Source: a virus | Taxonomy: Duplodnaviria > Heunggongvirae > Uroviricota > Caudoviricetes | Virus record (IMG/VR): IMGVR_UViG_2695420732_000016 | Length of the DNA stretch: 6,360 nucleotides | Reading direction: 5' to 3' (one strand) | In this document: positions 300-6,360 of the stretch, piece by piece | Layout of the letters: each line of letters starts with the position of its first letter | How positions within the stretch are numbered: position 1 is the stretch's first letter | Position numbers and translations under genes: made by a program | Notes under the pieces: model-generated | The model's database searches: none | The model's input: the letters and a program-made list of their open reading frames with translations, nothing else | What the model was told of the DNA's origin: nothing

Positions 300-1521
300 G
301 ACCTTTTCCACCATATAAAGGAACAATAAATTCTTTTCTGATAGAGATTTAAATAAAAATACATTATTTTACAAAAAAATAATATCCATTACAAAAACAT
401 CCGATTTTTTTATATTCCCGCTCATCCTGCTAATTTGTATTACAAAAAAATGAAACAACTTGAACCAAAGTGATACAAAATTAGAAAAGAAAACCCCAGG
501 AAGACAAAGAAGACGATCTTTTTCAATGAGTTACACTGATTTATTGACTATGATTTTTAGCAAAACAATCGAAAGCAATGTGTACCGAGAAGGTTAAAAG
601 ATGGAATGGATAGTTATTGACACAGTGATATGCCCATCAAGCGGAATAACGTTTTCAACTGTATGGTGTAAAATAAAGTTGATAATCTGGTATCAGTCAG
701 ATGTGTTCCTGCCACCCGGAAGTATTCTCACACCTGTTAACTCAGGTGTGATTATGGATAATAAGCTGCTTCCATTAACCATTTACAACGTGACACCATT
801 TAACAGAAAATTCTGGTTCCTTATCAGAAATCAAAAAGAGTGCCCCGGGAATTCAGTTAAAACAAAAATAAAATGCCATAATAGTATGTGTGTACTGATG
901 ATATGCCCGTATGGATTATATAAGTAACAACATATGAATACATAACAGATAAACTATTGACCTTGAGGCTCATCCATATAAAGAAGAGCTCTCCGAAGAG
1001 GTGTGTATTTGCATGCACATTCCTTTTTTGCTCTATGTCATGACCTCCGGCGACTCTATCCCGGCACCAGCAAACCCGCATCATTCTCGTTTCCGGTGTC
1101 TCTAAAACCACAGCACACCTGCCCCCCCGCTGAGGGAGGGAAGCACTGTATCCGTACACTCAGCAACAGAAATACCACCTGCTCACTGCGCTACATATCA
1201 GCAACAATTTTATACCCGAACATTATCATTCAACAGCATGGTTCACAACAACATCATAACCCAGGAAACGAGAATCAGATCAAAAAAACAGAAATTTTAC
1301 ATGAAAAATACTGTTTATTAATATTGATAGCGTCGTACCACAAAATACGATGAATTATCCCTGAACTTAACATTAATGCCAGTATGTATTGCCCGCTGGT
1401 ATCAGCGGGCGCTTTAAGAGATCGTATTCATGACTACCTGGGAAAAAGCTATTTTACTATTGTCAGTTTTTATTGCAGCCTTATCTGTCTACTTGCTTCA
1501 CAGCCTGAACTGACCATATCT
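300..1521. other. AT-rich, apparently non-coding tract between the methyltransferase and the NanS-p-like gene, with a more GC-rich core around 1000-1200
   Basis: Strongly A+T-rich with A-tracts; TTACAAAAA occurs three times near 369, 390 and 440. The three track ORFs here (601..927 +, 857..1159 -, 1003..1353 +) translate to low-complexity, Cys/Trp/Ile-rich sequences and two use GTG starts. No tRNA T-loop motif (GGTTCGAATCC or its complement) seen. Confidence 0.5.
1391..1410. other. Perfect 8-bp GC-rich hairpin (GCCCGCTG-GTAT-CAGCGGGC) about 110 nt downstream of the methyltransferase stop
   Basis: Inverted repeat read directly. No clean U-tract follows on either strand (minus: AAUACAUACUGG; plus: GCUUUAAGAG), so it is not a canonical intrinsic terminator; possibly an RNA stability or processing element. 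Confidence 0.4.
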
Positions 1522-2598
1522 TTATCCATCCTTCCCGTCATCAATTGAGCATGTAAGGATGTGACTAATCTCCTTAACGGTCTGCGCAAAACGTTCTGCC
1601 TCCAGTTCAACACCAGTTGCACGACGCCCGAGCGCCATAGCTGCTTTTATGGTTGAGCCAGAACCCATGAAAAAATCCGCCACCAGGTCACCCGGACGAC
1701 TGCTCGCGCAGATTATCTGCCGCAGCATTTCTGCCGGTTTTTCGCACGGATGTTTCCCTGGATAGTACTGCACCGGTTTATGCGTCCACACATCGGTGTA
1801 CGGCACCTGCACCGTCACACCGAAATACCGCCGCAAATTTTTATATTCACTCAGCAGTTCCATGTACTGCCGGTTCAGCTCACTGTATGTGCTGACCAGT
1901 TGGTAATGGGACTTTTCCAGTTCTCCCCGCTGATGTTTCTCTTCTGCCACCCGGGCAAACAGCGACTGTAATTTCAGATAATCGCTTTCGTTCGGTAGCT
2001 GCCACTGACTGGCACTGAACCAGTGCGACACCATGTTTTTCTTTCCTGTGGCATCTGCAATCTGTTTTGCCGTTATCCCAAGAGCAGCACGCGCATCACG
2101 AAAGTAAGAAATCAGCGGGGCCATCACATGCTGTTTCAGTGCCCTGCCCTTCGCCTCATCGCCATCATCTTTCGGACGATACGGCCCCTGATAATGTTCC
2201 GCGAACAGAATGCGTTCTGTGGCCGGAAAATACGCCCGCAGGCTTTCCTTGTTGCACCCGTTCCAGCGTCCGGACGGCTTCGCCCAGATAATATGGTTCA
2301 GCACATTGAAGCGTTCACGCATCATGATTTCAATGTCAGATGCCAGGCGATGGCCACAGAACAGGTAAAGACTTCCGGCAGGTTTCAGCACCCGCCAGAA
2401 CTGCGCCAGACACTGGTCCAGCCACTTCAGGTAATCATCGTCGCCCTTCCACTGGTTATCCCAGCCCTCGGGCTTCACTTTAAAGTATGGCGGGTCTGTG
2501 ACTATCAGATCGACAGAGTTTTCCGGTAAGGTCTGGATAAATTCCAGGCAATCAGCGTTGATTAACTCACAACTGGATATTTTTACAGTATTAAGCAT
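1522..2598 (-). CDS. DNA methyltransferase, beta-class N6-adenine/N4-cytosine family (DPPY motif favours N6-adenine); orphan prophage methyltransferase
   Basis: 358-aa ORF. Catalytic motif IV LIVTDPPYF near the N-terminus (aa ~32-39) and AdoMet motif I FFMGSGST near the C-terminus (aa ~300) give the beta-class order IV then I. No adjacent restriction endonuclease ORF. An in-frame TGA sits immediately upstream of the ATG at 2598, so this is the first possible start; the SD is weak. Confidence 0.9.
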   Translation of the reverse strand: MLNTVKISSCELINADCLEFIQTLPENSVDLIVTDPPYFKVKPEGWDNQWKGDDDYLKWLDQCLAQFWRVLKPAGSLYLFCGHRLASDIEIMMRERFNVLNHIIWAKPSGRWNGCNKESLRAYFPATERILFAEHYQGPYRPKDDGDEAKGRALKQHVMAPLISYFRDARAALGITAKQIADATGKKNMVSHWFSASQWQLPNESDYLKLQSLFARVAEEKHQRGELEKSHYQLVSTYSELNRQYMELLSEYKNLRRYFGVTVQVPYTDVWTHKPVQYYPGKHPCEKPAEMLRQIICASSRPGDLVADFFMGSGSTIKAAMALGRRATGVELEAERFAQTVKEISHILTCSIDDGKDG

Positions 2599-2734: not shown

Positions 2735-2762
2735 AAATAAAAAAGCCTTCACTGCGGAAGGC
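2735..2762 (-). terminator. Rho-independent terminator at the end of the 65-aa ORF
   Basis: Minus strand reads GCCUUC-CGCAGU-GAAGGC followed by UUUUUUAUUU (plus-strand stem 2745-2762, A-tract 2735-2744). The stop codon of the 65-aa ORF lies inside the 3' arm of the stem. Confidence 0.65.
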
Positions 2763-2946
2763 GTCTGTAACAACCGAACTGATAGTCTGCCAGACCCGCC
2801 ATAACAAGCTGGGTCAGTATTAACTGGCAGCGTTCGCGTGAAAGGTAAGTATTCTGCGCAATCTCCCCGACTGTCGCCGGGTCGGTAACGCTTAATTCAT
2901 TAAACACCACTCTGGCGGTTTCTGTCATATCCTGCTGTTTTAGCAT
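2749..2946 (-). CDS. Small putative winged-helix DNA-binding protein (FaeA/PapI-like pattern), 65 aa
   Basis: ORF with ATG at 2946 and a purine-rich SD-like stretch (AAAGGGAAAAAAGAC) upstream. The segment VFNELSVTDPATVGEIAQNTYLSRERCQLILTQLVMAGLADY resembles the PapI/FaeA winged-helix pattern (ILEFLN...[28 protein letters not shown]). The assignment is from recalled family patterns, not a search. Confidence 0.45.
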   Translation of the reverse strand: MLKQQDMTETARVVFNELSVTDPATVGEIAQNTYLSRERCQLILTQLVMAGLADYQFGCYRRLPQ

Positions 2947-3068: not shown

Positions 3069-3093
3069 AAAAAAACCCGCAAAAAGCGGGCTC
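3069..3093 (-). terminator. Rho-independent terminator about 100 nt downstream of the Q-like gene (tR'-like position)
   Basis: Minus strand reads (GAG)CCCGC-UUUUU-GCGGG followed by UUUUUUU (plus-strand stem 3076-3090, A-tract 3069-3075). Short GC stem with a 7-U tail; position matches the terminator of the short PR' transcript in lambdoid phages. Confidence 0.55.
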
Positions 3094-3169
3094 TTTCAAA
3101 TGTCCATGTCTGCTATTCGCCTCGCGGTACAGCTTTGCGAAGCTTACCGGAATTGAAGCAGTTTTTACG

Positions 3170-5500: not shown

Positions 5501-5527
5501 AAAAAACAAAACCCGCCGAAGCGGGTT
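5501..5527 (-). terminator. Rho-independent terminator of the hok transcript
   Basis: Minus strand reads AACCCGC-UUCG-GCGGGUU followed by UUGUUUUUU: a 7-bp stem with a UUCG tetraloop and U-tract, about 70-95 nt downstream of the hokD stop. Confidence 0.75.
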
Positions 5528-5566
5528 AAGTGCGGGTGCGTTGAGGATGCCTGACTCATCAGAGGT

Positions 5567-5588
5567 GGCGAGGGATTTCTCCCTCGCC
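5567..5588 (-). other. Perfect 9-bp GC-rich hairpin in the hokD 3' UTR (GGCGAGGGA-TTTC-TCCCTCGCC), candidate fold-back (fbi-like) element
   Basis: Inverted repeat read directly, 8 nt downstream of the hokD stop. hok-family mRNAs carry structured 3' ends that pair with the 5' leader. Confidence 0.45.
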
Positions 5589-5595
5589 TGGTCTC

Positions 5596-5751
5596 TTACT
5601 CCTCAGGTTCGTAAGCTGTGAAGACAGCGACCTCCGTCTGGCCGGTTCGGATTCGTACCTCGCAGAGGTCTTTCCTCGTTACCAGTGCCGTCACTATGAC
5701 GGTTAAACAGATGACGATCAGGGCGATTAACATCGCCTTTTGCTGCTTCAT
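5596..5751 (-). CDS. hokD: Hok-family type I toxin (small membrane-depolarising peptide), HokD/RelF-like
   Basis: 51-aa product MKQQKAMLIALIVICLTVIVTALVTRKDLCEVRIRTGQTEVAVFTAYEPEE: a single transmembrane helix followed by the conserved TRK.LCE.R...G..EVA.F.AYE core of Hok/Gef. SD AAGGAG 9 nt upstream of ATG 5751..5749. Confidence 0.9.
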   Translation of the reverse strand: MKQQKAMLIALIVICLTVIVTALVTRKDLCEVRIRTGQTEVAVFTAYEPEE

Positions 5752-5808
5752 AGCCTGCTTCTCCTTGCCTTTCGGCACGTAAGAGGCTAACCTACATGTG
5801 CAAAGCAT
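5596..5808 (-). CDS. Mok-like in-frame N-terminally extended reading frame of hokD (putative translational coupling frame)
   Basis: The 70-aa track ORF begins at ATG 5808 with SD GAGG 8 nt upstream and shares hokD's frame and stop. This matches my recollection that chromosomal mok frames share their stop with hok. The mok SD can pair with GCCUC at 5783-5787 in a hairpin that encloses the start codon. Confidence 0.5.
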   Translation of the reverse strand: MLCTCRLASYVPKGKEKQAMKQQKAMLIALIVICLTVIVTALVTRKDLCEVRIRTGQTEVAVFTAYEPEE

Positions 5809-5927
5809 GAAATTGGCCTCAGATTAATGTTAAGCGTCTTGCCGGACGCGTAATGTTAACTGGGGCTTTTCTCTATCTGCCTTTTGGTGTTCATACCTGA
5901 GGCAGATAGCCTCAAGCACCCGCAGCA

Positions 5928-6233: not shown

Positions 6234-6360
6234 TGAACCGCCCCGGAAATCCTGGAGACTAAACTCCCTGAGAAAGAGGTAAACAGGATGACTAAAAATA
6301 CTCGTTTTTCCCCCGAGGTCCGTCAACGGGCAGTTCGTATGGTTCTGGAAAGTCAGGGCG
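6234..6360 (+). mobile_element. Left end of an IS3-family insertion sequence (IS629/IS1203-like), continuing beyond the window
   Basis: TGAACCGCCCCGGAAATCCTGGAGACTAAACTCCCTGAGAAAGAGGTAAACAGG matches, from memory, the IS629-group left terminal repeat, with the orfA ATG 54 nt inside the end. Exact IS identity needs a database check. Confidence 0.75.
6288..6360 (+). CDS. IS3-family transposase OrfA (HTH domain), 5' partial, runs off window end
   Basis: Translation from ATG 6288 gives MTKNTRFSPEVRQRAVRMVLESQG, the characteristic N-terminus of IS629/IS3-group OrfA, preceded by SD AAGAGG. Not in the ORF track because there is no stop in the window. Confidence 0.85.
   Translation, partial: MTKNTRFSPEVRQRAVRMVLESQG

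Follow-up and report, generated by a model that had tools for sequence, protein, structure and literature searches.

The 1.2-kb tract at positions 300-1521 of IMG/VR virus record IMGVR_UViG_2695420732_000016, which separates a DNA methyltransferase (methylase) gene from a NanS-p-like esterase gene, is best explained as an accessory slot without Shiga toxin (stx) or tRNA genes, in which an intact iraM moron, a remnant of the STnc100 small RNA (sRNA) gene and a conserved post-methylase segment (1266-1521) lie side by side. We put the probability of this reading at roughly 0.88. The 6,360 nt analysed here (hereafter, the window) make up a lambdoid prophage's late-regulatory region, and the genes in it occupy the minus strand. 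An initial annotation, made from the letters of the window, had correctly recognized the order Q, methyltransferase, tract and NanS-p-like esterase, as well as the parallel to the cargo position of Stx phages: in the Stx2a phage Stx2_EH2201 the toxin genes occupy the same place. Its call of a non-coding tract with no credible open reading frame (ORF) has to be withdrawn, however. An iraM-family gene runs from 601 to 927 on the plus strand; it was present in the program-made ORF list and was probably overlooked since the late-gene strand alone was considered. The same annotation had itself allowed for a conserved coding gene that had been missed, and iraM, on the other strand, is such a gene.

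The ORF at 601-927 is a bona fide member of the iraM family and is already annotated as such in RefSeq. Among 5,426 complete Escherichia coli genomes, megablast with the tract found 29 near-identical copies, all with the annotation "iraM: anti-adapter protein IraM" at the positions corresponding to 601-927 (+). RefSeq places iraM at precisely this position for at least 28 complete genomes, and the 108-aa product has its own RefSeq entry (WP_001443281.1, "anti-adapter protein IraM"). This product matched the NCBIfam model NF007393 (IraM) over residues 1-107 at 144.2 bits, above the curated cutoff of 121 (E = 1.6e-42), and the crystallised IraM of PDB entry 8twd (8twd_A) over residues 1-77 at E = 2e-29. 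A Pfam-A scan of the product gave no match at E ≤ 0.01; the precomputed database assignment is PF11183 for all of its homologues. We built an AlphaFold2 (AF2) model of the protein from a 16-sequence alignment, in which residues 1-79 were confidently predicted (predicted local distance difference test, pLDDT, 76-94; strands E3-66, helix H69-77). Over residues 1-78, the model has the PmrD-like antiparallel beta-barrel with a beta-hairpin and one C-terminal helix. Its top Foldseek match was 8twd_A, that is, IraM bound to RssB (template-modeling score, TM, 0.87; root mean square deviation 1.1 Å), and the next matches after IraM were the PmrD structures 4hn7, 2jso and 2rqx, which reproduces the kinship between the IraM and PmrD folds described in PMC10844676.

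The residues through which IraM touches RssB are partly retained. Among the 14 contact residues taken from PMC10844676, which fall into clusters I to III, nine are identical in the window protein (I4, I6, W22, K26, I42, F18, W30, I61 and Y62). Cluster I, which contacts RssB's N-terminal domain, is fully kept (5/5), cluster II retains two of five residues with conservative changes at the other three, and cluster III two of four. The changes in clusters II and III might fit a paralog whose mode of binding is modified. Beyond the modelled barrel, the C-terminal tail (residues 81-108; window 841-924), which was removed for crystallography and has a pLDDT below 50 in the AF2 model, contains four cysteines (C81, C92, C97 and C102) and a CPYG motif that do not vary across 16 members of the family with identities as low as 44%. 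This cysteine-rich tail may be a metal-binding site.

The gene is under purifying selection. The ratio of nonsynonymous to synonymous substitution rates (dN/dS, Nei-Gojobori) was 0.18 against the copy in relative L004 and 0.10 against the copy of the Stx2a phage, with dS saturated in the comparison with K-12, and the reading frame is intact in 29/29 genomes and in all diverged relatives. These selection data, together with the homology data, refute the notion that the tract is functionally non-coding, that is, a leader or an H-NS-silenced buffer for nanS-p in which a 108-codon ORF happens to be open or is already dead. One might hold to that notion on the grounds that the tract is very AT-rich, that the Pfam-A scan of the ORF came up empty and that the ORF lies antisense to an operon transcribed through the tract. 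Against these points stand the above-cutoff NCBIfam score, the match to 8twd and an IraM fold, the PF11183 assignment of every homologue, the low dN/dS at saturated synonymous sites and the frame that stayed open both in the 29 genomes and in diverged relatives, which leaves it with next to no probability.

The window allele belongs to a branch of its own within a widespread family. IraM-family genes were present in 4,726 of the 5,426 genomes, the window allele in 29 and alleles at 80-90% identity in 10 more. The window protein is 83% identical to its closest relative (L004), 61-63% to the IraL type and 56% to K-12 IraM, and in a neighbour-joining tree it groups with L004, L032, L033 and P0002-P0006 in a clade distinct from those of K-12 IraM, the IraL type and the Stx2-phage type. 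K-12 IraM (YcgW; PDB 8twd), an anti-adaptor for RssB that Mg2+ starvation induces, is of nearly the same length (107 aa against 108), shares the beta-barrel and, like the window gene, lies within or next to prophage DNA (e14 in K-12) in an AT-rich context. The two differ in clade and in placement, the window gene having its place in the late region of a lambdoid prophage with the STnc100 remnant on one side and nanS-p on the other, and their upstream regions have no detectable similarity beyond the start codon. IraL of uropathogenic E. coli (UPEC) CFT073 and Shigella (PMC4045071) is a member of the same family and likewise an accessory-genome gene, in a clade different from that of the window allele; alleles of its type in the viral contigs L035, L038 and L044 share the arrangement of iraM, STnc100 and esterase seen here.

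The closest parallel in position is provided by the Stx phages. The general plan in the relatives is Q, a 65-aa ORF, the methylase, segment D in some, tRNA genes, stx2AB in the Stx phages, the sRNA, iraM on the opposite strand and the esterase. Stx2_EH2201 (LC567829) thus carries Q, a hypothetical gene, the methylase, three tRNAs, stx2A, stx2B, STnc100, iraM and nanS-p; L006 (a Stx2a phage) has the methylase, tRNAs, stx2AB, STnc100, iraM and yjhS, while the order in L004 is methylase, segment D, tRNA-Thr/Arg/Gly, STnc100, iraM and esterase. In the Stx2a and Stx2c phages (Stx2_EH2201, phage 2851 and phage 1717), iraM has the same orientation as in the window and lies between stx2B/STnc100 and nanS-p (yjhS), and the surrounding genes are similar as well (methylase 92% identical, esterase 5' end 89% identical). 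The iraM allele itself is more divergent, with a protein identity of 64% and a DNA identity of 72% over the first 216 nt, and these phages, unlike the window, contain tRNAs, stx2AB and an intact STnc100 (149.5 bits).

Upstream of iraM, the 453-600 region holds a Shine-Dalgarno sequence AGAAGG (588-593) 7 nt ahead of the ATG and a -10-like hexamer TATGAT (549-554) about 47 nt ahead of it. The hexamer is common to nine aligned alleles, reading TATACT or TATAAT elsewhere, and it aligns with the -10 hexamer of the iraL-type loci, from which the window differs by indels of 2-4 nt around the -35 region. The iraL gene has its own sigma-70 promoter (PMC4045071). Because in iraL-type loci the sequence after the hexamer matches the iraL mRNA start mapped by 5' RACE, TATGAT very probably marks the iraM promoter, as judged from this alignment. 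Indels between this upstream region and those of the relatives are not multiples of three. Farther from the gene, segment A (300-452) occurs in the same 29 of 5,426 genomes only and has no similarity to the relatives by nhmmer. It contains, at 369, 389 and 440, exactly the three copies of TTACAAAAA that the initial annotation had pointed out, along with weak sigma-70-like matches on both strands. Such repetition is mildly above chance, as some 9-mer recurred at least three times within 300-600 in 74 of 2000 composition-preserving shuffles (p ~0.04). The phased A-tracts claimed for the tract are present too, in the form of a 10-bp phasing of A/T tracts, though they are only mildly unusual (33/1000 shuffles, p ~0.03) and owe most of their signal to the TTACAAAAA repeats. 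Since K-12 iraM is described in secondary sources as repressed by H-NS, it is plausible that H-NS silencing, which had been proposed for a nanS-p leader, would act at the iraM promoter instead (300-600, 26-28% GC). On the 3' side of the gene, a hairpin with TCCTTTTTTG (996-1030) could possibly be a weak intrinsic terminator of iraM; its folding energy is not significant (z = -0.7), and the terminator tool does not accept it.

The second component of the slot is the GC-richer core noted near 1000-1200, which was borne out (52.5% GC at 1001-1200) and which is best described, from its alignment with the relatives, as a homologous and syntenic but decayed copy of STnc100, a pseudo-sRNA. A BLAST search of plasmids, phages and E. 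coli genomes with the 264-bp core (1002-1265) found nothing outside the same block. Comparison with the relatives' loci by nhmmer was more informative: positions 1017-1149 match the sequence directly 3' of iraL-type genes, which in turn is Rfam STnc100 at 141 bits, and the window core aligned in synteny with the STnc100 genes of L043, L046 and L035 (E = 1e-4). In every relative examined, STnc100 lies on the minus strand, convergent with iraM, and scores 83-150 bits on the Rfam model. The window remnant has the same orientation along the late operon, and its 3' end overlaps the post-iraM stretch kept with L004 (928-1001). A common ancestry with STnc100 and a position upstream of the esterase gene have been reported for PasD2 of enteropathogenic E. 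coli (EPEC) E2348/69 (Pas-sRNA preprint). As a query, PasD2 detects the relatives' STnc100 at 5e-12 and nothing in the window, and a PasD identity of the core was rejected.

Signs of decay pervade this copy. The Rfam STnc100 model gave no match in the window, either at the gathering score (47 bits) or at E ≤ 10, and its identical copies carry no STnc100 either; a covariance model (CM) that we built from ten relatives aligned over its full length to 974-1168 at only 8.9 bits (E ~0.09). The window copy forms 15 of 27 consensus pairs, compared to 24-27 in the relatives, and matches 38 of the 67 columns that are invariant among them. Its TAAAAA -10-like element and invariant 5' block GCATGGTGAATCCCCC are mutated, two helices of the family are gone, and the terminator hairpin has dropped from -17.3 kcal/mol in the relatives to -2.3 kcal/mol. 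The hallmarks that define STnc100, PasD1 and PasD2 (the 5' block GCATGGTGAATCC, the closing helix, the CCGGG/CCCGG hairpin and a strong terminator) are thus not preserved as a set. On neither strand did the core fold better than shuffles (z = -0.3 and -1.1). In L049 (127-133), moreover, 53 bp are deleted between CACCTGC direct repeats (window 1116-1182), and an equivalent gap is found in L024 and L028; the deletion, which looks like a slipped-strand or microhomology event, takes out the poly-C/poly-G 5' hairpin of the remnant.

We considered whether the core might nevertheless be a functional, highly diverged sRNA of the STnc100/PasD type, or some other small RNA. Its synteny and homology with STnc100 would allow for this, as would the example of PasD and STnc100 themselves, which have diverged beyond BLAST recognition yet are functional, and the 5' hairpin is kept in an altered form (CCCUCCC/GGGGGGG). 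Conservation of the core among carrier genomes (98-100%) may seem to point in the same direction, but it reflects the recent common descent of the whole block and not constraint. Given the weak CM score, the silence of both the Rfam model and PasD2, the loss of 12 of 27 consensus pairs, of promoter-like element, 5' block and terminator, the shuffle-like folding, and a deletion that natural copies of the block have sustained, we regard a working sRNA here as improbable. The suggestion in the initial annotation that the tract could hold a small RNA or a degraded remnant was apt insofar as the core is a degraded STnc100/PasD-family sRNA gene; it did not extend to the intact iraM beside it.

The third component, segment D, follows directly past the methylase stop codon and continues in diverged form up to the sRNA remnant: by nhmmer, window 1156-1222 aligns with L004 4936-5002 and L050 2436-2501 (E = 0.005-0.01). 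At this junction (~1150-1170), the relatives hold ~720 bp with three tRNA genes, plus stx2AB in the Stx phages, and L004 4215-4935 (tRNA-Thr, Arg and Gly) has no counterpart in the window. Such an arrangement raises the question of whether the slot is a deletion scar left by an ancestral Stx or tRNA-bearing phage that lost its stx and tRNA genes. The relatives' cargo lies exactly between segment D and STnc100, in the window the D extension runs almost immediately into the STnc100 remnant at its 5' end, and the decay of the adjoining sRNA fits a relaxation of selection after cargo loss. No stx or tRNA fragments were detectable, on the other hand, and the change may have had the opposite polarity, with the tRNA or stx cassettes as insertions in other lineages. 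We consider a past deletion to be only a little less probable than its opposite, and compatible with an iraM-bearing accessory slot, as it concerns the history of the slot and not its present function. Within segment D, an island of ~60 nt (1363-1425) containing an 8-bp GC hairpin (1391-1410) shows no difference among the window, L004 and L005 (100% identity), with flanks at 77-83%. It was present in 42 of the 5,426 E. coli genomes, the phage collection contained no record with it, and its hairpin has no T-run on either strand; the island may act in RNA processing or RNA stability, or may serve as a site of recombination.

From these components, a scheme for the action of iraM can be proposed. 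In the lysogen, late transcription would stop at the terminators after Q, leaving iraM to be transcribed from an AT-rich promoter region of its own (300-600). Its product, judged by homology, would bind and sequester the response-regulator adaptor RssB, such that sigma-S (RpoS) would not be delivered to ClpXP and would accumulate, and the general stress response would go up. Upon induction, the Q-modified polymerase would traverse the tract antisense to iraM and proceed to nanS-p and the lysis genes, and such read-through is consistent with the finding that no terminator-like site was detected on either strand of 200-1700. The mechanism of IraM and IraL acting on RssB is established for the family (PMC4045071, PMC10844676). 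Because a rise of RpoS in the lysogen would follow from the block of RssB, a lysogenic-conversion gene, or moron, is the best-supported description of the window iraM on the basis of its homology. It resembles Hendrix-type morons in that it is autonomous, brings an upstream region of its own, sits as an insert between genes of the late operon, deviates in base composition (33-39% GC, compared to ~52% in its neighbours) and is variably present. It departs from them in running against the late operon, and its promoter and terminator are putative.

Several observations weigh against this picture. The TATGAT hexamer is without an acceptable -35 element at 16-18 nt, the -35 being poor and the spacing different. 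No convincing PhoP box of the K-12 kind was found upstream of iraM: the search gave 13 matches at three mismatches, where 6.3 were expected, and none better, and none of these is kept in the relatives. Five of the 14 RssB-contact residues are changed, mostly conservatively (T13S, C14S, L75I, H63N and I64V), and the identity to K-12 IraM is a mere 56%. IraL, a paralog at a similar distance, contacts RssB differently; it binds the N-terminal domain only and acts in log phase (PMC4045071). Because of this precedent, details of the mechanism may differ between the window allele and IraM. Finally, the sRNA remnant could still be transcribed within longer RNAs.

A more far-reaching possibility concerns the pairing of iraM with STnc100. 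The two genes, iraM (+) and STnc100 (-), converge in all relatives examined, their 3' ends separated by 11-47 nt, and in Stx2 phages the pair lies directly downstream of stx2B. STnc100 sits 75 nt downstream of stx2 (PMC12370729). In the literature that we searched, neither the convergent pair beside stx nor the distinct IraM clade of the window, L004 and their relatives is discussed, and the Pas-sRNA preprint, although it analyses the neighbourhoods of STnc100, never mentions IraM. The window clade would be as far from IraM and from IraL as these are from each other, and it could represent a third IraM-like anti-adaptor with its own signal and perhaps its own mode of RssB binding. The iraM/STnc100 pair might at the same time be a functional module, in which sRNA and anti-adaptor mRNA would interact via a shared terminator or via antisense pairing of their 3' ends, with the sRNA decayed in the O103/O111/O121 block. 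We regard this combination as speculative and rather unlikely.

The coordinates of all features are collected in Table 1.

Table 1. Features of the window, from the esterase to the far end of the late-regulatory region, and corresponding loci in relatives.
Feature	Position	Strand	Remarks
NanS-p-like esterase	start codon at 299	-	DUF1737; RefSeq "SASA family carbohydrate esterase"
Segment A, distal part of divergent nanS-p/iraM intergenic region	300-452		GC ~26%; specific to the allele block
iraM proximal upstream region, putative promoter and 5' untranslated region	453-600	+	75-78% identical to L004
iraM-family gene	601-927	+	108 aa; RssB anti-adaptor family; opposite strand to phage late genes
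STnc100 pseudogene (RF02076, PasD-related)	974-1168 (about)	-	convergent with iraM; most of the GC-richer core
Hairpin and TCCTTTTTTG	996-1030	+	upper stem 1002-1008/1013-1019; inside the decayed sRNA
Diverged continuation of segment D	1156-1265		
Segment D	1266-1521		immediately beyond the stop codon of the methyltransferase gene (minus strand), on its 3' side; 82-90% identical to relatives
N6/N4 DNA methyltransferase (methylase)	1522-2598	-	
65-aa ORF	2749-2946	-	between post-Q terminator and methylase
Q-type antiterminator		-	DUF1133 and Phage_antitermQ; terminator-like hairpins follow
DUF968 gene, then rusA		-	between hokD/sok and Q
hokD toxin ORF and sok antisense RNA	5596-5921	-	Rfam RF01794, 119 bits
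Convergent iraM/STnc100 loci in relatives	L004 3644-4214; L006 5001-5546; L035 3501-4072		also L033, L032, L038 and L044

Several further statements of the initial annotation about the tract were sound. Its GC content is 26-39% in 200-nt windows over 300-1000 and 1200-1500, compared to 50-57% in the flanking genes. ARAGORN found no tRNA or tmRNA gene in it, at default or relaxed settings, and tblastn with stx2A/B yielded only a 12-residue match at E = 0.35. Two of the checks proposed there came out negative: the Rfam covariance-model scan found no family in the tract at E ≤ 1 (and none at E ≤ 10 on a 661-nt sub-region), and a search for stx or tRNA remnants returned nothing meaningful. A single 12-nt match to a relative's tRNA-Gly sits inside STnc100-homologous sequence and is probably due to chance. 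Other candidates within the tract were set aside. Neither Pfam nor NCBIfam gave a match for the ORFs 460-597, 1003-1353 and 1384-1548 (+) and 857-1159 (-), and the 116-aa ORF 1003-1353 matched, among 5.8 billion proteins, only itself and one deletion variant. An inverted repeat (1083-1099/1259-1275) was considered as an element resembling a miniature inverted-repeat transposable element (MITE); it lies partly in the STnc100 remnant and partly in segment D, and it has no other support.

Elsewhere in the window, the 65-aa ORF at 2749-2946 shows a weak match to the TrmB helix-turn-helix (E = 0.004), its homologue in one RefSeq genome is called a TrmB family regulator, and it is kept at the same position in Stx phages. 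Sub-threshold isrK-like matches at 3070-3143 (-) and 5506-5587 (-), with 19.8 and 27.8 bits at a gathering score of 50, coincide with short terminator-bearing regions after Q and after a 90-aa ORF; the former is probably the pR'-tR' short transcript. The hokD/sok pair is a type I toxin-antitoxin module within the prophage. The same record goes on, past the window, with genes for holin, lysozyme and Rz, and at the opposite end an ORF (6289-6360, +) that begins with MTKNTRFSPEVRQRAVRMVLESQG runs off the window; this start presumably corresponds to the N-terminus of an IS3-family OrfA (IS629-like), which it resembles.

With the false "non-coding" call corrected, the stx-equivalent slot of this prophage is seen to carry a lysogenic-conversion gene that probably raises RpoS; in O103, O111 and O121, serogroups of food-borne E. 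coli, resistance to acid and stress is under RpoS control. It is not a new kind of system, the gene being annotated in RefSeq and both families having been described: a known moron is combined with a pseudo-sRNA, and the new points, namely the convergent pair beside stx and the distinct IraM clade, are modest. The slot demonstrates that an sRNA gene can decay there while the adjacent protein gene stays under selection, and Stx-type phages keep the iraM-STnc100 pair right beside stx. If the two genes did form a functional module, decay of the sRNA would alter iraM expression, and hence RpoS, in the non-O157 Shiga toxin-producing E. coli and EPEC lineages O103, O111 and O121.

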